This document shows positions 13,823-46,648 of a DNA stretch of 64,000 nucleotides, piece by piece. Both the position numbers and the translations under genes were made by a program. Under the pieces are notes generated by a model. That model saw only the letters and a program-made list of their open reading frames with translations. It was not told the origin of the DNA and made no database searches. Origin of the DNA: Patescibacteria group bacterium (GTDB lineage: Bacteria; Patescibacteriota; Patescibacteriia; UBA10025; JAHIVO01); assembly GCA_041660605.1 (NCBI GenBank), contig JBAZWB010000001.1:686503-750502 (forward strand), given 5' to 3'. The stretch's first letter is position 1; each line of letters starts with the position of its first letter.

Positions 13823-15070
13823 ATGAATATTTGCATTTACGAGGACTCTGACCACGAAAAATTATATCCACTTGCCCTCACTAGACCGGTTTTTGATTTA
13901 AAATTCGGTTTTTTTACTTTATTGCAAAGATTGCTGAAATCAATTAAAACCACCGAAAAATTGCGAACTTCACTACTTTGCCGTGATTATCTGAAAAACA
14001 GAGTCAAAAAAGAAAATCCATCGGCTGCGATAAATAAAATTAATAAGGATCTGACTATTTTTTTAAACGGCCGGATGATATTAAGGGAGTCATTATTACG
14101 AAAATTAATTTCCTTAAAAAAGGATGCGATATTCGTAGATAATCAGATGATAATAGCGGCAAGACTGTCAGATGAAAATTTAAAACAAATTGACGTCAAG
14201 AATCCCGGAGAATCATTGAAAAAAATCAGAGCTCCAAGAATTAAAGTTAAGGCTCAGTTGATTGCCCATCTTTGGGAATTAATAACATTCAATGAGAAAT
14301 TTCTGGCCGATGATCTAAAGAACACCGGACTGCTGGGAAAAATCGAAGGCAATGTTTATCCTGGCGTTGACTATATTGAAAAAAAGAATATTTACATTGC
14401 AAAAAAATCCGTCATCAAATCCGGAACCGTGCTGGACGCTGAAAACGGGCCAATTTATATAGATGAATCAGCAATTATTGAACCGAATTGCACTATTGTC
14501 GGCCCGGCCTATATAGGAAAGAGTACAAAAATAAACGCCGGTGCCAAAATTCTTGCCAACACTTCGATCGGAGACTATTGCAGAATCGGCGGCGAAGTTG
14601 CTGAATCAATTTTTTATGGATATTCTAATAAACAGCACGACGGTTTTATCGGTCATTCGTACGTCGGTGAATGGTGCAATCTGGGCGCCAACACTAACAA
14701 CAGCGATTTAAAGAATAATTACTCCCCTATTGATATTGTTGAAAACGGAAAAAAGGTTAATACCGGCTTAATTCATTTTGGCTTTGTCATGGGCGATCAT
14801 TCAAAAACCGGCATCAGTACTATGATTAACAGCGGAACGGTAATAGGCGCTGGATGCAATCTTTATGGCGCTGGCTACCTCCCAAAATATCTCCCATCAT
14901 TCACTTGGCTGGATAATGGAAAAACTCCGGTTACTTACAATTTTTTAAAATTTTCCAAAACTGCCCACCTTGTTTGTCAAAGGCGTAAAAGTAAATTTTA
15001 TAAAACTGACGAAGCGATATTTTCAAACATTTTCAAACTAACCAAGATGGAAAGGGCTGATTATAAGTAG
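13823..15070 (+). CDS. sugar-phosphate nucleotidyltransferase with a C-terminal left-handed beta-helix (hexapeptide-repeat) domain, GlmU-like
   Basis: 415 aa. The C-terminal half is rich in [LIV]-G-x4 hexapeptide repeats (IGKSTKINAGAKILANTSIGDYCRIGGEVAESIF...). It is the first gene of the glycan locus. Confidence 0.65.
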   Translation: MNICIYEDSDHEKLYPLALTRPVFDLKFGFFTLLQRLLKSIKTTEKLRTSLLCRDYLKNRVKKENPSAAINKINKDLTIFLNGRMILRESLLRKLISLKKDAIFVDNQMIIAARLSDENLKQIDVKNPGESLKKIRAPRIKVKAQLIAHLWELITFNEKFLADDLKNTGLLGKIEGNVYPGVDYIEKKNIYIAKKSVIKSGTVLDAENGPIYIDESAIIEPNCTIVGPAYIGKSTKINAGAKILANTSIGDYCRIGGEVAESIFYGYSNKQHDGFIGHSYVGEWCNLGANTNNSDLKNNYSPIDIVENGKKVNTGLIHFGFVMGDHSKTGISTMINSGTVIGAGCNLYGAGYLPKYLPSFTWLDNGKTPVTYNFLKFSKTAHLVCQRRKSKFYKTDEAIFSNIFKLTKMERADYK

Positions 15071-15082
15071 TTGATAATTTAC

Positions 15083-15174
15083 CACGAATTTAGAATCACG
15101 AATCAACACGAATTCTCACAAACAAACGTTAGTAAAAATTCAAATTAGTGTAGATTAGTGGAAATAGATTAGTG
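15083..15174. promoter_or_regulatory. 92-bp dyad-symmetric element. It has three CACGAAT half-sites (15083, 15097, 15107) mirrored by three ATTAGTG half-sites (15144, 15154, 15168).
   Basis: Read directly. Half-site spacing is 14 and 10 bp on the left arm and 10 and 14 bp on the right arm, symmetric about ~15128. ATTAGTG is the reverse complement of CACTAAT, one mismatch from CACGAAT. The element sits immediately upstream of the epimerase start at 15195. Confidence 0.4.
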
Positions 15175-15194
15175 GTAATTAACACACAAATAAC

Positions 15195-16157
15195 ATGAAA
15201 AATGTATTAGTAACAGGTGGCGCCGGTTTTATAGGTTCGCATGTTGCAAAAAAACTGCTTGAACGCGGTGATCAGGTTATTATAGTTGATAATTTTAATG
15301 ATTATTATGATCCCAGCCTGAAAGAAGACCGTATAAAAATCTTGCTAAAAGACTTAAGTTTCAAGCTATACCGGACCGACATCGTAAATCTGGATGACCT
15401 GAAAAAAATATTTCAGAAAAACAAAATCGATGAAATCTGCCACCTAGCCGCCAGAGCCGGCGTACGTGCCTCTATTGCCAATCCCTTTATCTATCAGCAA
15501 TCCAATGACTTAGGAACTCTCAATCTTTTAGAGCTGGCGAAGGATTTTAAGATAAAGGATTTTGTCTTTGCTTCCAGCTCTTCGGTCTATGGAGGCAATG
15601 CCAAAATCCCATTCTCTGAATCAGATCCGGTTGACCATCCAATCTCCCCCTATGCGGCTACTAAAAAAGCTACGGAGGTTATGGCGCATGTCTATCACCA
15701 CTTATACGGCATTAACTGCACTGCCTTGCGATTTTTCACTGTTTGCGGTCCTTGGGGCAGGCCGGATATGGCTTTGTTCAAATTTACAGAAAAAATATTA
15801 GGCGGTAAACCAATTGATGTTTATAACAATGGAGACCATGAGCGGGACTTCACCTATATTGATGATATTGTTCAGGGTGTTGTGGCCGCGTTAGATAACC
15901 CTTTTCCATATGAAATAATTAATCTTGGTAATTCGCATACTGTAAATCTCAAGTATTTCATTGAATTAATTGAAAAGGAATTAAACAAAAAAGCAAAAAA
16001 GAACATGGTACCTTTGCAAGCTGGTGATGTGCACAAAACACACGCCGATATCAGTAAAGCCAAGAGATTGCTGGGATTTGAGCCCAAAACTAACATCGAA
16101 AAAACCGTTCATAATTTTATTAATTGGTATAAACAATATTATGGAATCAAAAATTAA
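15195..16157 (+). CDS. NAD-dependent epimerase/dehydratase, UDP-glucuronate 4-epimerase-like (extended SDR family)
   Basis: 320 aa. VLVTGGAGFIGSHVAKKLLERGDQVIIVDNF and YAATKKATEVMAHVY (YxxxK). Confidence 0.8.
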   Translation: MKNVLVTGGAGFIGSHVAKKLLERGDQVIIVDNFNDYYDPSLKEDRIKILLKDLSFKLYRTDIVNLDDLKKIFQKNKIDEICHLAARAGVRASIANPFIYQQSNDLGTLNLLELAKDFKIKDFVFASSSSVYGGNAKIPFSESDPVDHPISPYAATKKATEVMAHVYHHLYGINCTALRFFTVCGPWGRPDMALFKFTEKILGGKPIDVYNNGDHERDFTYIDDIVQGVVAALDNPFPYEIINLGNSHTVNLKYFIELIEKELNKKAKKNMVPLQAGDVHKTHADISKAKRLLGFEPKTNIEKTVHNFINWYKQYYGIKN

Positions 16158-17079
16158 GTACTCAATAGTTATCCCGGCATATAACGAGCAGGACGCTGTC
16201 GGTCCCCTACATCAAGAGATTAAAAACGCTATGGAAAAAATCGGTGATCCCTATGAAATCATTTTTATTGATGATGGTTCGTCTGACAAAACTTTTGAAC
16301 GGCTTAATTCTTTGATGCCCGTTAAAATCGTCAAGTTCAGAAAAAATTTCGGCCAGACGGCGGCGCTTGATGCCGGCATAAAAAATTCCCTGGGCGAAGT
16401 AATAATAATGCTGGACGCTGACGGCCAGAATCCTCCCTCGGAAATACCCAAGCTATTGGAAAAAATGAAAGAAGGATATGACGTTGTCTCCGGCTGGCGT
16501 TCAAAAAGAAAGGATACTTCAGCAAAAAAATTTGTTTCACGCGGTGCCAACCTTCTCAGGAAATTACTGGTTAATGACCAAATCCATGATTCCGGCTGTA
16601 CGCTGAAAGCCTATAAAAAAGAATGTTTCGAAGATATAGATCTGCAGGGGGAAATGCACAGATTCATCCCTGCCATTTTGCGCTGGCATGGTTTTAAAGT
16701 TACTGAAGTGCCTGTGGAACACCGCGCCAGGACTACAGGTACCACAAAATATAACTGGAAAAGAATATTGAAAGGCTTCATCGATATGATGTCCGTCTGG
16801 TTCTGGAGAAAATATTCAAATCGACCACTGCATCTTTTTGGCGGTCTGGGAATATTTATTGGTGGCACAGGGTTTGCTCTTGGATTATTCTTAGCGATTG
16901 GCCGTTTATTAGGATTATTTTCTCTGCAAAACAGGATTTGGCCTTTGGTAGCCGTATTTTTGATATTAGCCGGTATGCAGCTCTTTGTTTCAGGATTACT
17001 GGCTGACATTGCCGTAAAATCATATTACAGCGGGAAAAGAAGAGTTTACTACATTGAAAAAGTCATTTCCAGAGAATGA
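16141..17079 (+). CDS. GT2 glycosyltransferase, DPM1/ArnC-like polyprenyl-phosphate sugar synthase with C-terminal TM helices
   Basis: The start was refined to ATG at 16141 (MESKIKYSIVIPAYNEQDAV...), overlapping the epimerase stop. DAD motif (IIMLDADGQNPP) and two C-terminal TM helices, as in dolichol-P-mannose/undecaprenyl-P-sugar synthases. Confidence 0.8.
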   Translation: MESKIKYSIVIPAYNEQDAVGPLHQEIKNAMEKIGDPYEIIFIDDGSSDKTFERLNSLMPVKIVKFRKNFGQTAALDAGIKNSLGEVIIMLDADGQNPPSEIPKLLEKMKEGYDVVSGWRSKRKDTSAKKFVSRGANLLRKLLVNDQIHDSGCTLKAYKKECFEDIDLQGEMHRFIPAILRWHGFKVTEVPVEHRARTTGTTKYNWKRILKGFIDMMSVWFWRKYSNRPLHLFGGLGIFIGGTGFALGLFLAIGRLLGLFSLQNRIWPLVAVFLILAGMQLFVSGLLADIAVKSYYSGKRRVYYIEKVISRE

Positions 17080-18203
17080 AAATTTTGCTGCTAAATTATG
17101 AATTTCCACCACTAGGCGGCGGTGCCAGTCCGGTTAGCTATGATATTGCTCTCCGGCTATCCACGATCGGTAAATTCGATATTGACGTGGTTACTATGCA
17201 CTACCGCGGTCTGCCAAGAAAGGAAATTATTAACGAACATTTCACAATTTACCGGGTACCTTCGTGGCGCGCAAAAAAAGAAATTTGCCACCCCTGGGAG
17301 CAATTAACCTATCTGATCAGTGGTTTTTTCAAATGTCTTTCTCTCATCCACAAAAACAAATATAACCTTTGCTATTGCCATTTCATTATTCCCACCGGCG
17401 TTTTGGCGTATTTGTTAAAAATCTTATTTAAGCTCCCCTATATCATTACCAGCCATGGCAGCGATGTTATTAAATACAATCCCAGATTTAAAAGGATCTA
17501 TCCTCTGATTACCGGAGTTTGGAAAACGATTTTGAAAAATTCATTAATTATAACTACCCCATCAATTTTTTTGGCTAGGCAGATAAAAAATGTTTATCCA
17601 AAACTTGATTCAAACAAAATAAAAATTATTCCAAACGGTATAGAAAAAAATAAATTTTCTCCATTAAAAAAGGAAAAAACTATTTTACTAGTCACCAGAA
17701 TATTATTAAATAAAGGCGTCCAAGTTGTATTGGAAGCGGTAAAAGGAACTAACATAAATGATTGGAACATAATTATTGTAGGCGAAGGACCAGCACGAAA
17801 ACAGCTTGAAATATTAACTAGACATTATAAACTAGATAAAAAAGTTACCTTTTTAGGTTGGGTAAAAAATCCCAGTGAAAAACTACGAAATTTATATGGA
17901 AGCGCATCAATATTTGTCTTGCCTAGCTTTTTTGAAAATATGAATGTCACACTTTTAGAAGCAATGGCTTCTGGTTGTGCAATTCTAGCTACAAATGTAG
18001 GTGGTAATCCAGAAGTAATAGGGAGTGCTGGTATTCTTTTTTCACCAAGAAATCCTGCTGAACTAAGAAAAAAATTGCTAGATTTAATTAATAATGAAAA
18101 AAACCTTTCACTTTTCAAGCAGGCTTCTCGCATAAGATTTGAAAAATATTTTTCTTGGGAAATCATAATTCAAGAATACTTAAATGTTTTTTGTGAAAAA
18201 TAA
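17076..18203 (+). CDS. GT4 glycosyltransferase
   Basis: 375 aa. N-terminal LLLNYEFPPLGGGA and C-terminal E-x7-E region (FENMNVTLLEAMASGCAILATNVGGNPEVI). Confidence 0.8.
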   Translation: MKILLLNYEFPPLGGGASPVSYDIALRLSTIGKFDIDVVTMHYRGLPRKEIINEHFTIYRVPSWRAKKEICHPWEQLTYLISGFFKCLSLIHKNKYNLCYCHFIIPTGVLAYLLKILFKLPYIITSHGSDVIKYNPRFKRIYPLITGVWKTILKNSLIITTPSIFLARQIKNVYPKLDSNKIKIIPNGIEKNKFSPLKKEKTILLVTRILLNKGVQVVLEAVKGTNINDWNIIIVGEGPARKQLEILTRHYKLDKKVTFLGWVKNPSEKLRNLYGSASIFVLPSFFENMNVTLLEAMASGCAILATNVGGNPEVIGSAGILFSPRNPAELRKKLLDLINNEKNLSLFKQASRIRFEKYFSWEIIIQEYLNVFCEK

Positions 18204-19089
18204 TATTACGGACATTTCTATTGAATCTCAAATGAAAAACAAAATCTCTGACTATTTTTCATCAAAAGTTCTTCAATTAAAATTATTAAGGGAAACAGAT
18301 GTCTCGTATCTTTATCTGGCTGAACTAAGTAATATTAAAATTTTAGCAAAACAATATAAAAATATATCTATCAAGCACGAATATGAAAACCAATTATATA
18401 TATATACTATTATAAATGACCATTATCAGAATAAATTATTCAGGGTACCACGACCATTCTTTTTTTCTGAATCCGAAAATTTTTTCACTATGGAATATAT
18501 TCCCGATGCTAAAAACTTTTTAGATTTGCTGTTTATTCTTCCTCTTAATCAGGTACAACAACTGTCTCAAAAGGTAGGGCTTGCCTTATATGAATATCAT
18601 GTGTTACTCACGAAGTACCTAAGCCAGAAAAAAAAATCTATTTATACGGGTGATTCAATGCAGGAACTTTTCAAAACAAAAAAGGGATCTACTATTAAAA
18701 AAATTATAGACAAATTCCCGGAAAATACGACGTCAGTAATTTACAGGGATTTTACGCCAACTAATATAATGTTCCGCAACGATGAAATATATTTTATTGA
18801 TTTTCAAACGATTTGCTATACTGGCCCCTTTTTTTATGACTTAGCGCGTTTTCAAGATGTTACTAGAATATTTAGTTTTTTGAAGCATCCGTTCTCTTAT
18901 CTTTATCATAGAAAAACAATATTAATGATTCTAGACCAAATAGTACAGGGGTATAATGAAAAAAAATATGTTGATAGAAATTTATTAAAAATGGCATCCT
19001 TTATCCATCACAAAGAACATGCAATCATGAAGAATAAAAATAAATTTAATAAGTACATATTAAAGTTTTTATATTTAATTAATATTTAA
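18184..19089 (+). CDS. protein-kinase-like (aminoglycoside/choline-kinase fold) phosphotransferase
   Basis: 301 aa. Catalytic-loop-like YRDFTPTNIMF and DFG-like IYFIDFQ plus FFYDLARF. Weak but consistent with the APH/ChoK family. The true start may be the internal Met at ~18232. Confidence 0.45.
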   Translation: MFFVKNNITDISIESQMKNKISDYFSSKVLQLKLLRETDVSYLYLAELSNIKILAKQYKNISIKHEYENQLYIYTIINDHYQNKLFRVPRPFFFSESENFFTMEYIPDAKNFLDLLFILPLNQVQQLSQKVGLALYEYHVLLTKYLSQKKKSIYTGDSMQELFKTKKGSTIKKIIDKFPENTTSVIYRDFTPTNIMFRNDEIYFIDFQTICYTGPFFYDLARFQDVTRIFSFLKHPFSYLYHRKTILMILDQIVQGYNEKKYVDRNLLKMASFIHHKEHAIMKNKNKFNKYILKFLYLINI

Positions 19090-19091
19090 AT

Positions 19092-19847
19092 ATGGTAAAT
19101 AAAAGCTATCGTGACGGATTTATGACTGGCGCAACTAGCTACGAATCTATTACTGCGCGCAAACACATTTCACTAATATATAAACTGGAGCAGGATATTT
19201 TAAGCGATTTTTTCAAAAAGATTAATTCACATTCAAAAACTGTGCTTGATTTTGCGTGCGGCACTGGTCGGTGGACAATGTTTTTAGAAAAATATTTTCA
19301 TAAGGTTACCGGACTTGATATTTCCCCTAAGATGATTGAATTGGCTCAACAAAAATGTAAACAAACCAATTTTTATGTAGATGACATTACTGGCGATAAA
19401 AATGCTAATCTACACTTTAATGATGCTTTTGATGTTTTAACGGCTTTTAGATTTTATAAAAATGCGGAAAATGAACTACAAATAAACGCCACTAGAAGCT
19501 TACAAAAATTAGTCAAAAAAGGAGGATATTTTATATTTGATTTGCATTTAAATACATTTTCAATTATGGGTTTAATTGCATGTTTCATTAGAATAACCCA
19601 ATTATATAAATTGCTAAAAATAAATCCGCTAGCCGTTCGTACTATCTCACTTAGAAGAATTAGAAAAATATTTAAACATAGTGATTTCGAAATAATCGAT
19701 TATTTTGGGATGGGAATAGTACCCGGAAGACGAAATTTTACTTTATTACCGACTTCAACGTTAATGCCGTTTGAACGGTGGTTAAGCCAGCATAAAATAT
19801 TAAGAAATTTTTGCTATAATTTACTGGTGTTCGCTCAAAAAAAATAA
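19092..19847 (+). CDS. class I SAM-dependent methyltransferase
   Basis: 251 aa. Motif I VLDFACGTGRWTMFL, motif post-I GLDISPKMI, and LTAFRFY. Confidence 0.8.
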   Translation: MVNKSYRDGFMTGATSYESITARKHISLIYKLEQDILSDFFKKINSHSKTVLDFACGTGRWTMFLEKYFHKVTGLDISPKMIELAQQKCKQTNFYVDDITGDKNANLHFNDAFDVLTAFRFYKNAENELQINATRSLQKLVKKGGYFIFDLHLNTFSIMGLIACFIRITQLYKLLKINPLAVRTISLRRIRKIFKHSDFEIIDYFGMGIVPGRRNFTLLPTSTLMPFERWLSQHKILRNFCYNLLVFAQKK

Positions 19848-19852
19848 TTTTT

Positions 19853-20947
19853 ATGAATATTTTACATTTAATTGATCATGTCGGATATGGCGGTACTCAA
19901 ACAATTCTCAAAGAAATATTTGAAAATCAAATTAATGATAAAAGCATCTTCTATTATGCATTACGCAATAATGCAACTGCACATGTTGACATACATCATA
20001 ATAATGTTTTATTTTGTTCAAGTTATTCGAAATTCTCCCTTAAGCCATTGTTCGAAATATGCGGACTCGTAAAGAAATATAATATTCAGATACTTCATTG
20101 CCATCTTTTTAGATCACAGGTATTTGGCTGGTTAATCAAAAAATTCTTTAATCACCGACTATGCCTTGTTTTTCATGAACATGGCGAAATATTTAGAAAA
20201 AAATGGTGGTTTATTTTTTTTCTCAAAATAGCTAAACTCGATATTAATGGCTGGATAGCTGTTTCAGCCGCGACAAAAACAAAACTGATTGAAACTTCAA
20301 ATATACCTGCAAAAAAAATTTTTGTTCTTTATAACTTTGCTAATAGCAATAAATTTAATGAAAAAAATCTGCGTAATCTCAACAGATTTCAAATCAGATC
20401 AAATTATCAAATTCCTCAAACCGATTTTGTCATTGGATTTCTGGGACGCTTAGATGAAATAAAATCGCTACCAACATTAATAAAAGCTCTGCCATTATTA
20501 AAATTCCCATTTGTAACGATAGTGGTAGGACAAGGACCAGAACATCAACCATTAGTTACCTTAGCAGAAAAACTAAACATAAAAGATAAAATCCGATTTA
20601 TAAATTTCCAAAAAGATGTTCTGTTAATATATTCTATAATAGACATCCTTGTACTGCCTTCACGTTCCGAAGCAAGCCCAATGATATTTTATGAAAGTCA
20701 AATGCTAGGCGTCCCCATAATCGCAAGTGATGTACCAGCATTAAATGAACTTATACGTGACGGTGAAAATGGTTCACTTTTTCAGTATCAAAATAGTAAA
20801 ATGTTAGCTCAAAAAATCACTAAATTTTATTTAAATAAATCATTTTTGGTGCATATTAAAAAAAATTCTTTGATAAACGGAAAAAAATTTACTATTTCAA
20901 ATTTTATTAAGAATCTGAACGCAATTTATGAGCAAATCCAATCGTGA
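19853..20947 (+). CDS. GT4 glycosyltransferase
   Basis: 364 aa. C-terminal SRSEASPMIFYESQMLGVPIIASDVPALNELI (E-x7-E-like). Confidence 0.75.
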   Translation: MNILHLIDHVGYGGTQTILKEIFENQINDKSIFYYALRNNATAHVDIHHNNVLFCSSYSKFSLKPLFEICGLVKKYNIQILHCHLFRSQVFGWLIKKFFNHRLCLVFHEHGEIFRKKWWFIFFLKIAKLDINGWIAVSAATKTKLIETSNIPAKKIFVLYNFANSNKFNEKNLRNLNRFQIRSNYQIPQTDFVIGFLGRLDEIKSLPTLIKALPLLKFPFVTIVVGQGPEHQPLVTLAEKLNIKDKIRFINFQKDVLLIYSIIDILVLPSRSEASPMIFYESQMLGVPIIASDVPALNELIRDGENGSLFQYQNSKMLAQKITKFYLNKSFLVHIKKNSLINGKKFTISNFIKNLNAIYEQIQS

Positions 20948-39010: not shown

Positions 39011-40465
39011 TTATATTTTTTGTAATTCATCTGCCTTTTCCTGCTTTTTCATCAAGCTACGGTAAAACGATATTTCCTGCCTAGTAATTCCGCCAGTAAT
39101 TAGCAGTAAAACGAAATAAATAACAATGCCGCCAAACAGAATCAGCAGTATATTCATGTTTCTAAAAACGTACAAAAAAATACCCATGCCAATCGCGGCT
39201 AAGACAGGCTTGAGCAAGTATGGAGTAAACTTCACACTGACTATTTTTCGGAATTTAAAATACATATAGAACAAAAGCACCAATGCCGTTACCAGCGTAG
39301 CCGCGGCTGAACCGTTTAAACTATAAAACGGTATTAAGATCAGATTCAGGATCAAATTAACGGCCGCACCCAGACCGACCCCTTTGGCATATGTTTTTTG
39401 CCGGTCGCAGGCCTGCAAGGAATTGCCATAAACGGTATTCAGGTAAGTTACCGCCGCGCCCCACATTAGGATCTGGAAAGCCAGTCCTCCACCGGAAAAA
39501 TCCTCGCCAAATATAAATACCAAAAGCTTAGGCCCGATGATCGTTACGCCGAACCCCAAAGGCACGGCAATGATAATCATCAGCTTGCTGAAATTTCCCA
39601 GCAACAGCTTCAGCCTGGCAACAGACTCTTTATACAACTTTGAAATTACCGGAAAAAATACTCCCACAAATACATTGGCAAAAAGCAAAACAAAAAAAAC
39701 AATTTTATATCCGGCATTGTACCAGCCGACTTCCTTGTCCCCGCTTAACAAGCCAAGCAGAAATGAATCCATAAAATAGTAAATATTCACGAAAACCAGG
39801 CTCAGGGTGAAAGGCCAGGATTGCTTAATTAAATACTGCCAAAACTTATAATCAAAGCTGAAAGATATTTTGACGAAATATTTATGCAAAACTATCAGCG
39901 AATATATAAGGGCTGCGAATGATGCAAATACGTAAACCCAGCCGAAATAAACCAGATCAAGCGTTTTCCAGGTTACCAGCAATCCGCCGCCGAACAAAAT
40001 GATTGAATATAACACCTTGCTGATCGCCTCGAAATTCATTTTTTCCTGCGATCGGTAAATTGCTACGCAAGCTTGGGTTAAATTATAAATTACCATATAA
40101 ATAGCAGTCAGCATTACCAGATAAACGACTACGGCTCCCTTATGGCTGATGGCGGCTATTAAAAACATCAAGCCAATGTAAAATACGCTCAAGACCAGCC
40201 TGAGGCTGAAGATGGCGCTGAAATACTTTTTTGACAGTTCTATGTGCCTGGAAACCTCGCGAATGGTGAAAACTCCCAGGCCGAAATCTATCAGTACGGC
40301 GAACAGGGTGGAAGCGCTCAGAGCGAAAGAAATCTGGCCGTATTTTTCCGCACCCAGGTATTTTGCCACCAAAACCGTGAATAGATAAAGCAGGACCGAG
40401 TTGATCACCTCGGAAACGCTCAGCCAGACGACATTTTTGAAAATAACCTTATGAACAACGGGCAT
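39011..40465 (-). CDS. Wzx-like flippase (MOP superfamily polysaccharide biosynthesis protein)
   Basis: 484 aa, ~14 TM. N-terminal VWLSVSEVINSVLLYLFTVLVAKYLGAEKYGQISFA is typical of the family. Confidence 0.7.
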   Translation of the reverse strand: MPVVHKVIFKNVVWLSVSEVINSVLLYLFTVLVAKYLGAEKYGQISFALSASTLFAVLIDFGLGVFTIREVSRHIELSKKYFSAIFSLRLVLSVFYIGLMFLIAAISHKGAVVVYLVMLTAIYMVIYNLTQACVAIYRSQEKMNFEAISKVLYSIILFGGGLLVTWKTLDLVYFGWVYVFASFAALIYSLIVLHKYFVKISFSFDYKFWQYLIKQSWPFTLSLVFVNIYYFMDSFLLGLLSGDKEVGWYNAGYKIVFFVLLFANVFVGVFFPVISKLYKESVARLKLLLGNFSKLMIIIAVPLGFGVTIIGPKLLVFIFGEDFSGGGLAFQILMWGAAVTYLNTVYGNSLQACDRQKTYAKGVGLGAAVNLILNLILIPFYSLNGSAAATLVTALVLLFYMYFKFRKIVSVKFTPYLLKPVLAAIGMGIFLYVFRNMNILLILFGGIVIYFVLLLITGGITRQEISFYRSLMKKQEKADELQKI

Positions 40466-40466
40466 T

Positions 40467-40805
40467 TTATTCCTTCTGATTTTGCTTAGTCCTTATTTTT
40501 CTGAAAATCAAAAAAACAATTTCCAAAATAATTAAAATACCCAGAACTATAGCAATGTTTATCTGCGTTATTTTAATACCGATTTTATTCAAAAAAAATA
40601 AAATCAGCGGCACTACAGACACCGAAAAAGCAAATGACAGCAAAACTCGCTCCAGCCAGTTCAGACTAGCACCCGTTTTTCCAATAATTTCGGCAGTACT
40701 GTCTTTTTTATTCATCGGAAAAAAAACGTAGGTCATCAACAAGCCCGGCACAAATAGTACTCCAAGAAATCCTAAAATAACTTGTAATACCGAAAAATCA
40801 TTCAT
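40467..40805 (-). CDS. small membrane protein (3 TM)
   Basis: 112 aa, hydrophobic. Abuts the flippase, with a 1-nt gap. Confidence 0.45.
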   Translation of the reverse strand: MNDFSVLQVILGFLGVLFVPGLLMTYVFFPMNKKDSTAEIIGKTGASLNWLERVLLSFAFSVSVVPLILFFLNKIGIKITQINIAIVLGILIILEIVFLIFRKIRTKQNQKE

Positions 40806-40811
40806 AGTATT

Positions 40812-42140
40812 CTATCTCCCCATCCCCAGGTACTTAAAGCCCAGCTTCTTTATCTGCTCCGGCTCGTAAATATTCCTGCCGTCAACAAAAACATGCTTCT
40901 TCATTAATTTTTTCGCCTTGTTAAAATCCAGCTTCTTATATTGATCCCATTCCGTGACCAAAACAACTGCGTCAGCCCCTTTCAGCGCCTGGTAAACTTC
41001 AAAACAATATTCAATCTTATTATGGAAAATGGTTTTAATGTTATGGAGGCTCATGGGATCGCAAACCCGGATTTTTGCTCCAAGCCGCAGTAATTTTTCA
41101 ATAATGGTAATTGAAGGGGCATCACGGATATCATCAGTATCTGGTTTAAACGAAGCACCTAAAATTACAATCGTATTGCCTTTTATTTTACCTAATAAAA
41201 TATGCAGCTTTTTAATAATTTCTTTACGCTGACCCATGTTAACTTTTTCCACCATTTTCAAAAAAGTCGGATCATACCCGTTGCGCTCATATATTCTGAT
41301 AAAACCTTTCATGTCTTTGGGAAAGCATAATCCCCCGTAACCAGCGCCGGCATTAAGGAAAGCCTTCTGCCCGATGCGATGATCGGCCTTCATTATCTCA
41401 GAAATCACCTTAACGTCCGCGCCAATTGCGTCGCATAGATTGGCGATATTGTTTATAAAAGATATTTCCGTGGCTAAAAAGACATTGGCAGCATATTTAG
41501 ACAGCTCGGCCGTACGGTTATTTGTTTCAAAAATTGGCGCTTTAATGGGCTTATAAACCGCTCGCATTATCTTTTTTATTACCGGACGGCAGTCATCCGC
41601 GTAGCCAAGCACTACCCGATGCGCCTTTAAAAATGAATCAATCGCCCGGCCTTCCTGCAGGAATTCCGGATTTGATACAATCTCAATTTTGCCTTTGTAA
41701 AATCTTTTAATGATTTTTTTCACCACTTCCGCCGTGCCTGCCGGGACTGTACTTTTTACTACGAAAATTTTATTGGTTTTTACCAAACGCGCGACGTCTT
41801 CAATGGCCTTCTGCAGATATCGCAAATCAACGCTGCCTGTTTTTCTGGATGGCGTACCAACGCAGAAAAAAACCAAATCGCTGTTATCCACCACATGCTG
41901 TAAATTCAGATAAAATCCCAGCCGTTTGGCTTTTAAATTTTTATTTACCAACTCATTCATATTCGGCTCATAAAACGGCATCATACCGCCATGCTGGAGA
42001 TTATTAATTCTTTCCGTATCAATGTCATAACACCTGACTTTATTCCCTATCTCCGCGAAACTGGCTGCTGTAACCAGTCCGACATAGCCGACACCAATAA
42101 TACCGATATTAAATTTTTTCTTTTTTAACAAATCGTTCAT
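40812..42140 (-). CDS. ugd: UDP-glucose 6-dehydrogenase (nucleotide-sugar dehydrogenase)
   Basis: 442 aa. IGIIGVGYVGLVTAASFAEIGNKV (NAD Rossmann) and the catalytic-Cys region GGLCFPKD. Confidence 0.85.
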   Translation of the reverse strand: MNDLLKKKKFNIGIIGVGYVGLVTAASFAEIGNKVRCYDIDTERINNLQHGGMMPFYEPNMNELVNKNLKAKRLGFYLNLQHVVDNSDLVFFCVGTPSRKTGSVDLRYLQKAIEDVARLVKTNKIFVVKSTVPAGTAEVVKKIIKRFYKGKIEIVSNPEFLQEGRAIDSFLKAHRVVLGYADDCRPVIKKIMRAVYKPIKAPIFETNNRTAELSKYAANVFLATEISFINNIANLCDAIGADVKVISEIMKADHRIGQKAFLNAGAGYGGLCFPKDMKGFIRIYERNGYDPTFLKMVEKVNMGQRKEIIKKLHILLGKIKGNTIVILGASFKPDTDDIRDAPSITIIEKLLRLGAKIRVCDPMSLHNIKTIFHNKIEYCFEVYQALKGADAVVLVTEWDQYKKLDFNKAKKLMKKHVFVDGRNIYEPEQIKKLGFKYLGMGR

Positions 42141-43477
42141 CTGCCTATTCCTTTATAAATTATTTTATTTTTAATTACTTCTTCTTTTGACAGGCAATTC
42201 TTGCCGTCAACTACGACTTTAATGCCGTTTCTTTTCAGTTGATTAACCGGAATTTTTTTAAAGTCTTCATGATCGGTAGCAATTATGATGGCCTCAGATT
42301 TTTTTAATAACTCATCAAGGCTTTTCACGGTTGACTCTTTATTAAAAAACGGATCAAAAATATTCAATTCTGCCCCTTCTTCCCGTAAAATTTCGATAAT
42401 TTTTAACGCCGGACTTTCTCTTTTATCGCCGACATTGGCTTTGTAAGATATCCCCAATATTCCTACCTTCGTGCCTTTTAACGACTTTTTTATCTGGTTT
42501 AAGCCTTTATTCAGTAAATCCACGGTGTATTTAGGCATGCTGTTGTTAATCTGCCTGGCAAGTTTTAAAAATCGATGATCAAAACCTGCCAATCGCGCCC
42601 GTTCTATCAGATAGTATGGATCCACAGGTATGCAATGTCCGCCCACACCGCAAGAAGGATAATGCGCCATAAAGGCAAACGGCTTAGTTTTGGCACCCTC
42701 TATAACATCGACTAGATCAATGCCCAAAGCCTCAAATGATCTGGCTAATTCATTTACAAAGGCGATGTTAATATCACGGAATGAATTCTCAATTATTTTC
42801 GTTGCTTCAGCCTCCTTGATTGACTTCATCGGGCGAATGGGTGCGGATAAAATTTTTCTGTAAAAATTTACTGCCAGGCTGAGCCCTTTTTTGTTGGTGG
42901 CACCCACGCAGCGGGGTATGTTTGTGACATTCCACTTAGGATCGCCGGGATTGATCCTTTCAGGACTATGCGCCAGATAAAAATCTTTTCCGGCTATCAA
43001 CTTTGATCCTTTCTCTAAAATCGGCTTGATGACTTCCTCGCAGACTCCCGGATTAACCGTTGACTCCATGACTACCAGCTGTCCGTGATGCAGTAGCGGC
43101 GCTATTTTATTGCAGGCCGAGCGCACTGGAGTCAGATCAGGGTTATACATTTTATCGACCGGCGTTGGCACGCAGATGACGATAATATCAGATTTTTTTA
43201 CTGAATCAAACTTAGTAGTAGCTACAAAATTCTTTTTAGCCACCCAGGCTGCTAATTCCGGATCTCCTTTAATCGGAGAAGTGCCTTTGTTAATCATTTT
43301 AACATTGGCTGAATCCCTGGAAATTCCAAAAGTCGTAAAACCTTTGTCACCGCACAGGCAAGCTAAAGGCAGGCCGACATATCCGACGCCAACAATAGTG
43401 ACAACCCGTTTTTTTTGCTTTTTCCCCTGGCTTTTTAATTTTTCAGCTTTTTTAATCTTTTTTACCATACTCTTCAT
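42137..43477 (-). CDS. nucleotide-sugar dehydrogenase, UDP-N-acetyl-D-mannosamine/UDP-GlcNAc 6-dehydrogenase-like (WecC/Cap5O family)
   Basis: 446 aa. VVTIVGVGYVGLPLACLCGDKGF and GGHCIPVDPYYL (the catalytic Cys of the UDPG/GDP-Man DH family). Confidence 0.8.
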   Translation of the reverse strand: MKSMVKKIKKAEKLKSQGKKQKKRVVTIVGVGYVGLPLACLCGDKGFTTFGISRDSANVKMINKGTSPIKGDPELAAWVAKKNFVATTKFDSVKKSDIIVICVPTPVDKMYNPDLTPVRSACNKIAPLLHHGQLVVMESTVNPGVCEEVIKPILEKGSKLIAGKDFYLAHSPERINPGDPKWNVTNIPRCVGATNKKGLSLAVNFYRKILSAPIRPMKSIKEAEATKIIENSFRDINIAFVNELARSFEALGIDLVDVIEGAKTKPFAFMAHYPSCGVGGHCIPVDPYYLIERARLAGFDHRFLKLARQINNSMPKYTVDLLNKGLNQIKKSLKGTKVGILGISYKANVGDKRESPALKIIEILREEGAELNIFDPFFNKESTVKSLDELLKKSEAIIIATDHEDFKKIPVNQLKRNGIKVVVDGKNCLSKEEVIKNKIIYKGIGR

Positions 43478-44369
43478 TGAACCAATTAAATGTCTTAATT
43501 AAACCACCGGATAAATTTTCTTTTGGCCGCCAGTGCAATACCGACATTGCCTGATTATTGGCCAAACGACTGTGCTCTTGCTCGTTAAGGCTATAACCCC
43601 GTTTAGGTTTAATCTTCATTTTAGCCAAAGAATAAATACTATTATACAACTCGTTTACTGTCGTTTCTTTATTGGTGCTGACATTAATTATTTTTTTATT
43701 TCCATAAATCAGGCTTTTTTGTACAGCTTTGACGACATCTGCAACATAAGTGAAATCTCTTGTTTGTCGGCCGGTATTGTTTATTTTTGACTGCTGGCCG
43801 CGGGCGCTGTTCTGGCAAAATACTGCCACCACACCGCCCTCCCCTTCAGCCCGTTGGCGCGGACCATAAACATTAGCCGGTCTGATGATCGTATAATTTA
43901 ATGCCGATTGCAGAAGATAAAGTTCGACAGTCCTTTTCGCAATGCCATACGGCGTGGCTGGTAAAGGGCAATCTTTTTCATTATTTGGCGCTTTATCAAA
44001 AATATTATAAACCGCTGCGCTGGAAAAAAAGATAAGTTTCTTGACTTTAAACTCAGAAGCAAGCCTGATGACATTCAAACTTCCCAAAATATTCGTTTCT
44101 GCGTCTTCAATCGGATGATTTTTTGAATATTGAAGGTTTATCTGCGCTGCTAAATGAAAGACAAAATCAAATTTATATGCTTTAAAACACCGACGAAGGC
44201 TAGGACTCTGTATTTGCTGATGAATGAAGCGCGCCTGTTTATTAATATTTTGGCGAAGACCACGACTTAAATCATCAACCACAGTAACCTGAAAGCCATC
44301 AGCCAGCAGACCATCAACCAGATGGCTGCCAATGAACCCAGCGCCTCCCGTAACTAAAACTCTAGCCAT
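43452..44369 (-). CDS. NAD-dependent epimerase/dehydratase (GalE-like SDR)
   Basis: 305 aa. MARVLVTGGAGFIGSHLVDGLLADGFQVTVVDDLS and YGIAKRTVELY (YxxxK). Confidence 0.8.
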   Translation of the reverse strand: MARVLVTGGAGFIGSHLVDGLLADGFQVTVVDDLSRGLRQNINKQARFIHQQIQSPSLRRCFKAYKFDFVFHLAAQINLQYSKNHPIEDAETNILGSLNVIRLASEFKVKKLIFFSSAAVYNIFDKAPNNEKDCPLPATPYGIAKRTVELYLLQSALNYTIIRPANVYGPRQRAEGEGGVVAVFCQNSARGQQSKINNTGRQTRDFTYVADVVKAVQKSLIYGNKKIINVSTNKETTVNELYNSIYSLAKMKIKPKRGYSLNEQEHSRLANNQAMSVLHWRPKENLSGGLIKTFNWFNEEYGKKD

Positions 44370-44372
44370 AGA

Positions 44373-45416
44373 CTATTCGTCCTCCTCTTTATCGTATTTC
44401 CAAAGCATTGGCTGCAGGATATTCTGGTGAGCCCTGACGTACTCAATCGTTTTCTCCAGACCCGCTTTCAGCGAGACTAAAGGATACCACCCGATTTTTT
44501 CCTTGACCGAAGAAATATCCGGCAAGGGCAGCGGGGTCATAAAAATCAATGACCGTTTGAATTTTATTGCTGATTTTGAATTGGTCATTTCTTTTATCTT
44601 CCTGGCGATATCGACCATGTTAAGCTCTTCGTAATGTCCGAAATTATAGATACCATTTTCATTTGATTTCATAAATTTCATCAAGCCTTCCACAATATCA
44701 GAAACATAGCAAAGCGAGGTAGTGAAATTCTCATCTCCGTAAATTACCAGCGGTTTATTGTTTAATGCCTGCAGTACAAAATCTGGTACCATATGGCCTT
44801 CAAAAAGAGGCAAACGCGGACCGTAAGTCCTGAAAATGCGGGCAATCTTTGTCTGAATATTAAACATATCCCTGTAAGTGATGGCCGCCGTTTCGGCAAA
44901 TCTTTTACCTTCATCATAACAGCTCCTGGGGCCGGTGAAATTAACATAGCCCTGGTAGCCTTCAGCATAAGGCGGTGCATCTACAAATCTCGGCCCATAC
45001 ACGACTACGGATGAAGTCAGTAAAAATTTTGCCTCATACTTTTTCGCTAATTCTAAAGCATTGGTAACTCCCAGGCTATTTGTATGCAGCGTCTTGATTC
45101 TCAGCGCATTGAAATTCTTCGGCGAAGTTGGGCAGGCCAAATGGTAAATTTCCTGGATTCCCTGAAAACGAACTTTGAATTTTTCCAATTCATGCATTGA
45201 TTCCAGATTTATTTCTTTGCAGATATCGTGTTTGATAAATTCAAAATTTGGGTTTTGCAGAAGATTACTGATATTTTCCACATTTCCGGAAGCAAAATTG
45301 TCCAAACAAATGACATTACTGTCCTTAACCAGGGCTTCGCAAAGATGCGAACCTATAAATCCTGCTCCTCCTGTGACTAAGACGTTTTTTCGCGGAAAAA
45401 TTTTTTCGTTTCTCAT
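44373..45416 (-). CDS. UDP-glucuronate decarboxylase (UDP-xylose synthase-like)
   Basis: 347 aa. VLVTGGAGFIGSHLCEALVKDSNVICLDNFASG, YDEGKRFAE (YxxxK) and overall UXS/ArnA-decarboxylase-like pattern. Lies next to UDP-glucose dehydrogenase. Confidence 0.75.
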   Translation of the reverse strand: MRNEKIFPRKNVLVTGGAGFIGSHLCEALVKDSNVICLDNFASGNVENISNLLQNPNFEFIKHDICKEINLESMHELEKFKVRFQGIQEIYHLACPTSPKNFNALRIKTLHTNSLGVTNALELAKKYEAKFLLTSSVVVYGPRFVDAPPYAEGYQGYVNFTGPRSCYDEGKRFAETAAITYRDMFNIQTKIARIFRTYGPRLPLFEGHMVPDFVLQALNNKPLVIYGDENFTTSLCYVSDIVEGLMKFMKSNENGIYNFGHYEELNMVDIARKIKEMTNSKSAIKFKRSLIFMTPLPLPDISSVKEKIGWYPLVSLKAGLEKTIEYVRAHQNILQPMLWKYDKEEDE

Positions 45417-45420
45417 AAAT

Positions 45421-46128
45421 TTATTTTTTTAACCTGATGCTCATTAATGAAAAAAACATTTTAAAAGCCATCTGGATCACTCTGCCAAACGAGCCTAGCA
45501 TGGCTGAGCTGCTTTTATCAACCCAGCGGGTTGGTACTTCTACTATTTTAAATCCCCGTTTCAAGGATAAATATAGCAGCTCGACATCAAAAGCCATATT
45601 GGTAATCTTCAATGATGGTAAAAGATTTTTTATGGCTTGCTTCTTGAAAATCTTCGCTCCACACTGTGTATCGGTAAAAGGCATCCAGAAAAATACTTTC
45701 ACGAATATTAAAAAACTGAAACTGATTAATTTTCTTGGAAAAGAACGGTTTATGACTTGCGAGCCTTTTTTCCAGCGCGAAGCTATTACTCCGTCTGCTT
45801 CACCGAGCTGATCAACAACTTTCTGGAATTCTGCCGGTTCAGTGGAACCGTCGGCATCAACAAAGCCGATTAGTTCACCTTCTGCCCGCGAAAATCCTAA
45901 ATGCACCGCACCGCCTTTGCCAATAGCTTTTTTTTCCTCAATATATTCAATTAATCCGGGGTATTCTTTTTTAAAATCTGAAACTATGCCGATGGTATTG
46001 TCCCGACAACCATTTAAAACGATGATGATTTCTGTATCTTTTCCGGAAAAATAATTTGTATAATCAGTTAATGTCTTGCTGATTCTCTGCTCTTCATTGA
46101 AGGCGGGAATGATTATTGACAGGTGCAT
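45421..46128 (-). CDS. GT2 glycosyltransferase (dolichyl/undecaprenyl-phosphate beta-glucosyltransferase-like)
   Basis: 235 aa. MHLSIIIPAFNEEQRISKTL and FVDADGSTEP (DxD). Confidence 0.8.
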   Translation of the reverse strand: MHLSIIIPAFNEEQRISKTLTDYTNYFSGKDTEIIIVLNGCRDNTIGIVSDFKKEYPGLIEYIEEKKAIGKGGAVHLGFSRAEGELIGFVDADGSTEPAEFQKVVDQLGEADGVIASRWKKGSQVINRSFPRKLISFSFLIFVKVFFWMPFTDTQCGAKIFKKQAIKNLLPSLKITNMAFDVELLYLSLKRGFKIVEVPTRWVDKSSSAMLGSFGRVIQMAFKMFFSLMSIRLKK

Positions 46129-46186
46129 ATATGTTTAAAATTATACCGAAAAATAAGCTTTTTAGCAACTGATATAAGACGCACGT

Positions 46187-46648
46187 TCAATTACGAAAAG
46201 TCCAATATTTATTGCCAAAATAATTGCTGAAAAGCACAATGCCAATTGCCACGGCTTTGGCAAAAAAATCAACGTTATCGCCGAAATATTTTACTGCACC
46301 ACTGTGTTCAACCACGATATAAACAATGCCTAAATTTAAAAAATAGTTGACCAGACTGACGATAAAAAATTTTACAGATTCGGACTTGGCCTTGCCGCTG
46401 TCACCTTTTTTAAAAGTCCAGAATTTATTCAGAAAAAAATTATTGACAATCGCCAAAAAAACGCTGGTAGCGGTGGCGTAAATATAATATACACCGAAAA
46501 CCCGCGTTAATAGCGCGTAAGAACTGAAATCAACCAAAGTACCGGCCACACCGACTATTCCGAATTTTAAAAATTCAACAACGCTTGGATGTTCTCGTAA
46601 ATAACTTATTTTTTCCAGCCGGTTTTTTAGTGTCATATTGCTGATCAT
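46187..46648 (-). CDS. GtrA-family membrane protein (polyprenyl-phosphate-sugar translocation-associated)
   Basis: 153 aa, 4 TM. FLKFGIVGVAGTLVDFSSYALLTRVFGVYY matches the GtrA N-terminal signature. Its start ATG overlaps the subtilase stop (ATGA). Confidence 0.75.
   Translation of the reverse strand: MISNMTLKNRLEKISYLREHPSVVEFLKFGIVGVAGTLVDFSSYALLTRVFGVYYIYATATSVFLAIVNNFFLNKFWTFKKGDSGKAKSESVKFFIVSLVNYFLNLGIVYIVVEHSGAVKYFGDNVDFFAKAVAIGIVLFSNYFGNKYWTFRN

Follow-up and report, generated by a model that had tools for sequence, protein, structure and literature searches.

What an ultra-small, uncultured Patescibacteria (CPR) bacterium does with four GT-C and three GT2 genes packed into about 35 kb is the question raised by the surface-glycan island analysed here. 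The island lies in a 64,000-nucleotide stretch of DNA (the window) from a Patescibacteria MAG; the sequence of its protein A matches that of an NCBI MAG protein at 100% identity. [quoted passage not shown] The evidence comes from the genes present, the families and folds to which their products belong, and the conservation of residues and gene neighbourhoods. Every open reading frame given in a preliminary description of this DNA was present at its coordinates. The core of that description stood; its GT4 count, the membrane helices of one GT2 and a wall-less cell did not, and a UXS could not be confirmed. Likewise, family, fold and synteny evidence supports its proposal of lipid-phosphate-sugar synthases, flippases and GT-C enzymes that work on the membrane's outer face, but not its more specific readings. 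The island was fairly called denser than an ordinary cluster, although similar modules recur in related genomes and several such glycosylation systems in one genome are known in Firmicutes (PMC8035078).

The three GT2 genes all encode Glycos_transf_2 proteins (Pfam) whose best solved relatives are polyprenyl-phosphate glycosyltransferases. Each contains a DAD motif (residue 92 in GT2a, 82 in GT2b, and 91 in GT2c), and all of their scores fall below the NCBIfam equivalog cut-offs. GT2a (16141-17079, plus strand), an ArnC/GtrB-class enzyme with two C-terminal transmembrane (TM) helices, matched ArnC (9e-47), GtrB (1e-32), and PfDPMS (7e-28), and aligned over its full length with the NCBIfam ArnC model (179 bits). 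GT2b (33161-34087, plus strand), an AglJ/DPMS-class polyprenyl-phosphate hexosyltransferase, also has two C-terminal TM helices; it aligned over its full length with NCBIfam AglJ (4e-74; 250 bits, below the cut-off of 325) and matched PfDPMS at 3.8e-14. GT2c (45421-46128, minus strand; 235 aa) is a soluble DPMS-like catalytic domain (PfDPMS, 2.8e-14, residues 1-201), and TM prediction gave no C-terminal helices. The DPM1/ArnC-type class assigned earlier to all three therefore holds, but the C-terminal helices ascribed to them are confined to GT2a and GT2b. The proposed GtrA translocation partner was borne out (46187-46648, minus strand; PF04138, GtrA_DPMS_TM, 100 bits). Its gene lies 58 bp upstream of the GT2c gene and is overlapped by 4 nt by an S8 protease gene. 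PfDPMS has a GtrA-like TM domain (PMC12992685), and the GT2c and GtrA pair looks like a type-III DPMS split over two genes.

The GT-C identity of the four polytopic proteins holds for all of them and is weakest for protein B. Protein A (12040-13707, minus strand), labelled "glycosyltransferase family 39" by NCBI, is a PMT_2-like GT-C from a family widespread in Patescibacteria; PMT_2 matched 30 of its 38 homologues and STT3 10 of the 38, and P41 and D42 are invariant. Profile comparison with hhalign showed the A family to be homologous to that of protein D (98.7%, E 2.9e-16), and the D family aligned with that of protein C (98.9%, E 1e-17) with the GDD motif in register. Protein D (36342-37952, plus strand) belongs to the DUF6541 family (E 4e-11), in which G43, D45, H190, and R334 are invariant. 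In Foldseek, its AF2 model (pLDDT 93.6) matched STT3 (E 1.8e-10, TM-score 0.63), then DPY19, AglB, PglB, ALG12, ArnT, AftA, and AftD; its nearest solved structures are oligosaccharyltransferase catalytic subunits, and the D-family profile also matched STT3 in the PDB (E 7e-4). Protein C (29922-33050, plus strand) is DUF6311-related. Its N-terminal GT-C module (approximately residues 25-450) is followed by an ectodomain modelled as a duplicated unit of one α/β domain and one β-sandwich, resembling BcsB and CBM35. D69 occurs in at least 90% of the C family and is invariant among close relatives. Of 38 loci with C homologues, about 14 have a gene for a Dpm1-like GT2 no more than 10 kb away; in four it lies directly upstream.

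Protein B (27587-29827, minus strand) is PMT_2-like with distant similarity to Agl23. It has no Pfam match itself, and its family profile gave no significant alignment to the A family, the C family, or any PDB sequence; PMT_2 matched 19 of its 36 homologues, which are named GT39 and in some cases come from an uncultured archaeon and Methanosarcina. Its match to TIGR03663 (E 6e-8) scored 32 bits where the cut-off is 126, placing B outside that subfamily. The acidic motifs reported for the four proteins are all present, and the Asp is invariant or nearly so in each family, in the first outward loop of the GT-C core. The motif had been placed directly after TM1, but WWDEG in B follows the fifth predicted TM helix. 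B carries an N-terminal extension of about 220 aa with four predicted TM helices, and this fifth is the first helix in the portion to which TIGR03663 and the homologues align. WWDE (residues 244-247) is at least 90% conserved in the B family, D246 and E247 included. The positive-inside rule, a crude estimate, put the motif outside clearly in B (K/R 39 versus 11) and moderately in C, and was ambiguous for A and D, so the outward orientation proposed earlier is backed in part. PMT_2 was found in most A and about half of B homologues. With E-value limits of 10 for Pfam and 1 for NCBIfam, ArnT and YfhO family models matched none of the four membrane proteins in the window. Structural comparison agreed with the assignment, the models of C and D matching STT3, Pmt, AftD, PglB, and ArnT.

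GT2b opens a tight GT2b-GT4-GT4-D run, in which the GT4 genes (34084-35244 and 35252-36367, plus strand; Pfam Glycos_transf_1/Glyco_transf_4) overlap or abut GT2b and D (overlaps of 4 and 26 nt). The order GT2b-GT4-(GT4)-D recurs in two related loci. Convergent with D is a GT4-like gene (37964-39007, minus strand; Glyco_trans_1_4, weak at E 6e-10), which holds the equivalent position in two loci. The region holds six GT4 genes, including one weak match, and the whole window eight; the description of multiple GT4s was right, but not its figure of about ten. Both flippases described earlier were recovered. One is a strong Wzx-type match (39011-40465, minus strand; Polysacc_synt, 146 bits), and Wzx homologues are convergent with D homologues in three related loci. 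The other is a MOP/Wzx-type candidate (26266-27573, minus strand) just over the cut-off (Polysacc_synt, 33 bits against 28), with no NCBIfam match. Beside the first, a short 3-TM protein (40467-40805, minus strand) corresponds to the N-terminal part of DUF1616 (63 bits), and DUF1616 also adjoins the Wzx homologue in one of those three loci.

Nucleotide-sugar genes occupy both ends of the island. A GlmU-type UDP-GlcNAc diphosphorylase/acetyltransferase (13823-15070; TIGR03991, 383 bits against a cut-off of 225) and an SDR nucleotide-sugar epimerase/dehydratase (15195-16157; Pfam Epimerase and GDP_Man_Dehyd) lie on the plus strand. On the minus strand are a UDP-glucose 6-dehydrogenase-like protein (40812-42140; Pfam and TIGR03026), a second NDP-sugar dehydrogenase closest to UDP-ManNAc/UDP-GlcNAc dehydrogenases (42137-43477), and two further SDR epimerases/dehydratases (43452-44369 and 44373-45416; Pfam). 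The dehydrogenases scored 412 and 407 bits with TIGR03026, above its cut-off. For the ugd and the UDP-ManNAc-type dehydrogenase described previously, the TuaD-like (460 bits) and UDP-ManNAc dehydrogenase-like (297 bits) scores both fall short of the equivalog cut-offs. The UXS of the supposed UDP-Xyl branch was not identified, all three SDRs scoring below every NCBIfam equivalog cut-off. A cytoplasmic tailoring block (17076-26116, plus strand) of low G+C (0.29-0.31) contains, by Pfam, GT4 genes (17076-18203, 19853-20947, and 22481-23635), kinase-like genes (18184-19089 and 21646-22488), methyltransferases (19092-19847, 20928-21668, 23641-24432 [FkbM], and 24448-25233), and a weak methyltransferase-like gene (25466-26116). 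The four or five methyltransferases and two kinase-like genes (18184-26116) had not been mentioned in the preliminary description.

One side of the island abuts a conserved block. Protein E (10211-11953, minus strand) has an N-terminal TM anchor and extends for about 545 aa beyond the membrane; neither Pfam nor NCBIfam gave a match. Its homologues adjoin A homologues in three loci and C homologues in five others, and E may be an accessory or acceptor-binding partner of A/C-type GT-Cs. Downstream of the A-E pair is a small membrane protein with four predicted TM helices (9789-10223, minus strand) and no similarity to GtrA, conserved in the same place in two of these loci. Beyond it, all on the minus strand, are RmlB (6352-7464; GDP_Man_Dehyd), RmlD (4902-5753; RmlD_sub_bind), RmlC (4370-4921; dTDP_sugar_isom), and RmlA (3135-3866; NTP_transferase), identified by Pfam, with an HD protein (5750-6343) inside this dTDP-rhamnose group. 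The block A-E-small TM protein-AdoHcyase-NUDIX-RmlBDCA is kept in all three other CPR genomes examined, and its other side, where the island lies here, differs among them. A wall-less cell, as suggested earlier, is at odds with two proteins encoded in the window, MurA (355-1608; 523 bits, cut-off 393) and MurJ (53486-55201; E 2.5e-93).

By analogy with characterised systems, we infer the donor lipids, the sugars, the acceptor, and which GT2 pairs with which flippase and GT-C. Nucleotide sugars would be made locally by the GlmU-type enzyme, the two NDP-sugar dehydrogenases, and several SDRs, with the dTDP-rhamnose genes adjoining. Working at the membrane's inner face, the three ArnC/GtrB/DPMS/AglJ-class GT2s would charge polyprenyl monophosphate with sugar, and the two GT4s co-translated in the GT2b-GT4-GT4-D operon may extend it to a short lipid-monophosphate-linked oligosaccharide. 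GtrA and the two Wzx-type proteins would flip the lipid-linked sugars outward, where A to D would transfer them to an acceptor by means of the invariant Asp in the first outward loop. The precedent is L. lactis, in which C55-P-GlcNAc is primed by WpsA/B, lengthened by glycosyltransferases in the cytoplasm, and flipped by WpsG, a Wzx-type protein; two GT-Cs, WpsJ and WpsI, then attach the unit to rhamnan or polymerise it there (PMC9574508, PMC8035078). The carbohydrate-binding-type domains of C and the location beside the dTDP-rhamnose genes point to a glycan acceptor. A wall-associated polysaccharide is the most likely, possibly containing rhamnose as in the Rha-CWPS of lactococci and streptococci; protein is less likely. 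The window yielded neither a recognisable rhamnosyltransferase nor an ABC exporter, an LCP ligase, or an initiating phosphoglycosyltransferase, and the backbone polymer is hypothetical for that reason.

The Rha-CWPS systems (L. lactis WpsA/B, WpsC-F, WpsG, and WpsJ/WpsI; Streptococcus pyogenes GacI/J/K/L) share with the island a Dpm1-like GT-A that primes polyprenyl monophosphate, cytoplasmic glycosyltransferases in the same locus, a Wzx-type flippase, one or more GT-Cs with little sequence conservation, adjacent rml genes, and a gene-bearing side that varies between genomes (PMC9574508). The island differs in its phylum, in combining so many GT-C and GT2 genes (four and three in about 35 kb), and in having no recognisable RgpA-F in the window besides the missing exporter and ligase. 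Its GT-Cs belong to other subfamilies (DUF6541, DUF6311-related, and PMT_2-like), and the likeness is one of component types, not a direct homology comparison. Among the three-component systems (GtrA/GtrB/GtrC, ArnC/ArnE-F/ArnT, and CsbB/GtcA/YfhO), GT2a is closest to ArnC and GtrB, TM hairpin included; a GtrA-family protein and GT-C partners with Asp in the first outward loop are also shared, but scores are below equivalog cut-offs and the ArnT and YfhO families were not matched. The literature gives CPR cells a single membrane, in which case the acceptor cannot be lipid A or O-antigen. The mycobacterial arabinofuranosyltransferase AftD is only about 10% identical to C, whose duplicated ectodomain, as modelled, has an architecture nearer to that of BcsB.

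The archaeal Agl pathway (AglJ, AglM, AglP, AglR, Agl23, and AglB) bears on an alternative in which secreted or S-layer proteins are the acceptors. The GT-Cs, D especially, would then take from polyprenyl phosphate either a single sugar, as in O-mannosylation, or an oligosaccharide preassembled in Agl-like fashion (AglJ-type priming, GT4 extension, flipping by Wzx) and transferred en bloc. Likenesses are the AglJ-like GT2b (250 bits), a Ugd/AglM-like dehydrogenase (328 bits with the AglM model), the methyltransferases, the Wzx-like flippases, the distantly Agl23-like B, and the DUF1616 fragment. B and C have homologues in Methanosarcinales, with close relatives in Methanosarcina and Methanoperedens that share neighbouring genes. 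Structurally, C and D are matched best by STT3, AglB, and PglB, the D profile reaches STT3, the GT2b-D operon is tightly packed and conserved near a Wzx gene, and the S8 protease gene overlaps that of GtrA. GT-C folds are nevertheless alike whatever the acceptor, and the polymer-modifying GT-Cs of Firmicutes have the same solved structures as top matches (PMC8035078). The island differs from the Agl pathway in its sub-cut-off scores and in belonging to a bacterium with MurA and MurJ, and it encodes no AglB/STT3 with WWDYG. WWDYG is the motif of oligosaccharyltransferases; it was found in no C-terminal domain of any protein, and the "DWG" of D (residues 426-428) is not conserved. Domain searches found no PMT or MIR domain in any protein of the region, and no neighbour is Ser/Thr-rich. 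The protein O-mannosylation suggested earlier thus gained nothing in support, and neither did its choice of the adjacent secreted proteins as acceptors, in which Ser/Thr content is an ordinary 11-12% with no Ser/Thr/Pro-rich stretch. With the CBM/BcsB-like domains on C also against it, we regard protein glycosylation as unlikely.

Far less probable still is an ordinary Wzx/Wzy O-antigen or capsule cluster. On that reading the role of Wzy polymerase or ligase would fall to the polytopic proteins, and ordinary cytoplasmic chain building to the GT2s. Two Wzx-type genes, many GT4s, nucleotide-sugar genes, a G+C down to 0.27-0.31 between 18 and 30 kb in the window, and variability among related genomes like that of O-antigen loci fit such a cluster. 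Wzy_C/O-antigen-polymerase models gave no significant match, however (best E 0.87, for D), and C and D, as modelled, resemble GT-C enzymes and not Wzy or WaaL. The GT2s match lipid-phosphate transferases best, two of them with a C-terminal TM hairpin, and an initiating phosphoglycosyltransferase was not found in the window. For B only, and compatibly with the transmembrane glycosylation reading for the rest, an Agl23-like flippase of lipid-linked sugars is improbable. TIGR03663 ("flippase activity-associated protein Agl23") is its sole curated-family match, its gene is directly beside the weak Wzx gene, and purified Haloarcula Agl23, described as a flippase, moved a lipid-linked oligosaccharide in liposomes (PMC11182771). 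Against this, half of the B homologues match PMT_2, and the conservation of WWDE and of several Arg and Tyr residues is what a catalytic loop would show.

The predicted products of the island are the parts for loading sugars onto lipid, flipping them outward, and attaching them at the cell surface. Such machinery has so far not been studied in CPR/Patescibacteria and is already known from Gram-positive bacteria. The locus is likely to be a cell-surface glycan island, variable between genomes, in a CPR bacterium that contains peptidoglycan.

All open reading frames named in the preliminary description are present, and its central proposal, that four polytopic proteins belong to the GT-C glycosyltransferases, was examined by profile and fold comparison. 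These proteins are designated A (12040–13707), B (27587–29827), C (29922–33050), and D (36342–37952). Hydropathy scans of A–D gave 9 to 10 TM segments at a strict threshold and 12 to 15 at a loose one (the loose counts take in four N-terminal helices of B), in keeping with the 8 to 13 helices of GT-C enzymes. The single sequences of A–D had no match among PDB sequences, and the family profiles of C and B found no GT-C enzyme there, so fold comparison was needed. The TM core was found to resemble that of solved GT-C enzymes. D is the only one of the four with a Pfam domain (DUF6541, E = 4e-11), and its AF2 model (pLDDT 93.6) was matched by Foldseek to STT3 (E = 1.8e-10, TM 0.63), followed by DPY19, AglB, PglB, ALG12, ArnT, AftA, and AftD. 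In hhalign, the D family aligned with the C family (98.9%, E = 1e-17, over 477 columns with the GDD motifs aligned) and with the A family (98.7%, E = 2.9e-16), and PMT_2 was matched by 30 of 38 A homologues. DUF6541 and a DUF6311-related, BcsB-like family can be placed in the GT-C fold, and a reading of the membrane proteins as Wzy polymerases was rejected on the fold evidence. The proposal is thus upheld for A, C, and D by profile and/or fold, whereas B, for which the sequence links are slighter, is the weakest GT-C case of the four. B itself has no Pfam match and its family did not align significantly with the A and C families (only 2.5% and 27%, respectively, in hhalign); PMT_2 was matched by 19 of 36 B homologues, and B matched the NCBIfam model TIGR03663/Agl23 (E = 6e-8). 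By this similarity B could be Agl23-like, and Agl23 shows flippase activity in vitro (PMC11182771).

A conserved acidic residue in the first extracytoplasmic loop (the modified DxD of GT-C enzymes) was found in all four families. D42 is invariant in the A family and D45 in the D family; D69 is present in at least 90% of C-family sequences (and is invariant among close relatives), as is D246/E247 in at least 90% of those of the B family. In each family, the Asp directly follows the TM helix with which the GT-C core begins. The motif had been placed directly after the first TM helix of each protein, which is correct with respect to the core, but B has an N-terminal extension, so that its first core helix is helix five of the whole protein. 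The motif had also been expected to face outward; the positive-inside rule, a crude estimate of topology, agreed clearly for B (K/R 39 vs. 11) and moderately for C (K/R 8 vs. 20), and was ambiguous for A and D.

Three GT2 enzymes, GT2a (16141–17079), GT2b (33161–34087), and GT2c (45421–46128), had been assigned to the polyprenyl-phosphate class, and the comparisons bear this out. Each contains a GT-A domain with its DXD motif in the form DAD and is most similar to the DPMS/GtrB/ArnC/AglJ class. GT2a matched ArnC (9e-47), GtrB (1e-32), and Pyrococcus furiosus DPMS (7e-28) in the PDB and aligned end to end with the NCBIfam ArnC model at 179 bits (cut-off 529). The best PDB match of both GT2b and GT2c was DPMS (for GT2c, 2.8e-14 over residues 1–201); GT2b scored 250 bits against the AglJ model (cut-off 325), and a match to the PgfS model in the GT2 tests reached 50 bits (cut-off 500). 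No GT2 scored at an equivalog cut-off, the level of identity that would give sugar specificity. C-terminal TM helices, described previously for all three, number two each in GT2a and GT2b and are absent from GT2c, which is encoded 58 bp from the GtrA gene (46187–46648); each enzyme thus has the TM helices or the separate membrane partner characteristic of the class. The identity of GtrA was confirmed by PF04138 (100 bits, cut-off 26.1; 153 aa with three predicted TM helices). A GtrA-like TM domain forms part of type-III DPMS (PMC12992685), so GT2c and GtrA look like a split version of that enzyme. Two flippase candidates matched Polysacc_synt (PF01943, cut-off 28.2), a Wzx-type protein at 39011–40465 with 146 bits and a weaker one at 26266–27573 with 33 bits. 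Three SDRs scored below the cut-offs of GalE, RmlB, and LegB-type models and none was diagnostic for the UDP-glucuronate decarboxylase (UXS) proposed earlier; the count of GT4 genes in the region was six, rather than about ten.

The island is best fit, by analogy, by multi-component transmembrane glycosylation. Such systems start with the loading of a sugar onto C55-P by a GT-A enzyme; the product is flipped by a protein of the GtrA or Wzx type, and the sugar is attached outside the membrane by a GT-C enzyme of low conservation (PMC8035078). The GT2s here would load C55-P, GtrA or Wzx would carry out flipping, and the GT-C proteins would perform the outward attachment. Use of polyprenyl-phosphate-sugar donors by A–D is putative, based on co-location with Dpm1-like GT2 genes, and particular GT2s, flippases, and GT-Cs are presumed to be paired. 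The mechanistic core of the lipid-linked, outward glycosylation proposed in the preliminary description holds. The conserved GT2b-GT4-GT4-D-Wzx module is similar to the variant called "complex" in lactococci. In these, cytoplasmic glycosyltransferases extend C55-P-GlcNAc, a Wzx-type protein flips the product, and GT-C enzymes attach it to rhamnan or polymerize it on rhamnan; the locus includes rml genes as well and has one variable half (PMC9574508). Genes for a backbone polymer, an ABC exporter, an LCP ligase, and an initiating phosphoglycosyltransferase were sought and not found in the window.

Protein O-mannosylation, suggested previously, was not sustained. PF02366 and MIR gave no match to A–D even at E-values up to 10, and the secreted proteins adjoining the island have ordinary Ser/Thr content. 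PMT_2, which is broader than PF02366, was matched by homologues and not by A–D, and "family 39", as A is labeled at NCBI, is a name at the family level; strict PMT/GT39 membership was therefore abandoned for want of the PF02366 and MIR features. Oligosaccharyltransferases lead the structural matches of D, and membership in that class (STT3/AglB/PglB) was also considered. A regular-expression search found no WWDYG in the C-terminal domain of A–D; the WWDEG of B sits in the first outward-facing loop of the GT-C core, outside any C-terminal domain, and a DWG in D (426–428) is not conserved. Pfam STT3 did not match A–D, D scored 14 bits against TIGR04154 (cut-off 450), and the D-family profile reached STT3 in the PDB at only E = 7e-4. 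Oligosaccharyltransferase membership was rejected because both a C-terminal WWDYG and an above-threshold STT3 match are missing, and nothing supports either protein O-mannosylation or oligosaccharyltransferase activity. It is improbable that GT2b-GT4-GT4-D and Wzx form a bacterial Agl counterpart, with D a new, WWDYG-less oligosaccharyltransferase that would transfer a polyprenyl-monophosphate oligosaccharide en bloc to surface proteins; if true, D would represent a DUF6541-family, STT3-like kind common to CPR bacteria and Methanosarcinales. In multi-component transmembrane glycosylation, the GT-C enzymes are recognized through similarity to ArnT and AglB (PMC8035078), so top matches to oligosaccharyltransferases are not by themselves a sign of a protein acceptor. 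In overall architecture C is like AftD, in which carbohydrate-binding modules accompany the GT-C enzyme, and this points to a glycan acceptor. The wall-less cell envisaged previously was discarded, since the window encodes MurA (523 bits, cut-off 393) and MurJ (E = 2.5e-93), as well as LepA; MurA and MurJ indicate that the organism makes peptidoglycan.

Pfam and NCBIfam scans covered essentially every window ORF of at least 100 aa, and gene neighborhoods were compared with loci in other genomes that contain homologues of A, C, or D (L-numbers). A block at 3135–13707 (minus strand) comprises A, the TM-anchored protein E (10211–11953), a small 4-TM protein (9789–10223), AdoHcy hydrolase, NUDIX, and RmlB-RmlD-RmlC-RmlA, and was kept in all three of the other Patescibacteria genomes examined (L040, L041, and L042). 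The far side of A differs in every genome examined (Wzm/Wzt ABC exporter with GT4s, UbiA with DUF1616, or a CDP-alcohol transferase in those three), which identifies the region as a variable island on a conserved core. G+C falls to 0.27–0.31 at 18–30 kb, compared to ~0.40 in the flanks; the dip spans the block of GT4, methyltransferase, and kinase genes together with the weak Wzx gene and B, and suggests separate acquisition of this stretch. Divergent B and C genes are paired again in 5 of 38 C-homologue loci, an E-like gene lies behind C in 5 of the 38, and in ~14 a Dpm1-like GT2 is encoded no more than 10 kb from the C homologue (directly upstream in 4). B and C homologues occur in methanogenic archaea at ~30–45% identity, and four Methanosarcina/Methanoperedens loci (L010, L013, L014, and L015) also have neighbors like GT2b, the GT4 at 34084, and GT2a, which suggests that CPR bacteria and Methanosarcinales share a module (27587–36367 in the window) or have exchanged it. 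Among seven D-homologue neighborhoods, all short contigs, the order GT2b-GT4-(GT4)-D was kept in L044 and L046, and a convergent Wzx gene lies nearby in L045, L047, and L048 (with DUF1616 adjoining in L047). The GT2b/GT4/GT4/D junctions in the window are, in order, a 4-nt overlap, a 7-nt gap, and a 26-nt overlap.

The Patescibacteria genomes examined share the A-E pair, a GT-C protein with a protein of no known domain. E, with a single TM anchor and ~545 aa outside the membrane, adjoins GT-C genes in differing arrangements: A in the window and C homologues in L002, L003, L004, L007, and L016. E may be a dedicated partner of GT-C enzymes. No similarity was detected between E and the C ectodomain, or between the small TM protein and GtrA. 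The match of a short 3-TM ORF at 40467–40805 (minus strand) to DUF1616 is limited to the N-terminal third of that family, and a short DUF1616 ORF occurs again beside Wzx in L047 (3550–4050) and beside the A homologue in L041 (7546–7926); the protein might act as a small membrane activator, like GacJ/WpsB.

Other features of the window were noted. About 12 genes at 37964–50089 (minus strand) run head to tail with short overlaps, in the order HtrA-like protease, S8/FG-GAP protease, GtrA, GT2c, nucleotide-sugar genes, DUF1616, Wzx, and a GT4-like gene; the S8 and GtrA genes overlap by 4 nt. Two pairs of a kinase-like protein (weak APH/RIO) and a SAM methyltransferase are encoded at 18184–19847 and 20928–22488. 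WbdD is the kinase and methyltransferase chain terminator of ABC-transporter-dependent O-antigens, and we presume the pairs (18184/19092 and 20928/21646) to resemble it, perhaps as split chain terminators; their presence contrasts with the absence of an ABC exporter from the window. The ~4 kb at 55201–59132 contain few ORFs, the largest of 168 aa without a domain, and a 115-aa FHA protein; no tRNA genes or Rfam matches were found there or elsewhere in the window. Beyond LepA and MurJ, 59132–63749 (minus strand) encodes a DUF4012 protein and two more GT4s, so the glycan genes run past the locus as originally delimited.

To our knowledge, there has been almost no experimental study of CPR/Patescibacteria cell envelopes, and CPR episymbionts rely on surface contact with their hosts. 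A paper on Saccharibacteria terms the glycosylation processes of CPR bacteria "unexplored" (PMC11623550), and a literature search for GT-C or PMT_2 proteins in CPR bacteria found nothing relevant. The four GT-C proteins, with their named putative catalytic Asp residues, the conserved GT2-GT4-GT4-GT-C-Wzx module, and the A-E pair are targets for study. The island adds Gram-positive-type glycosylation, already known as a kind, in a little-studied phylum, and a CPR genome of ~1 Mb (contig 960 kb) gives ~35 kb to such outward glycosylation.
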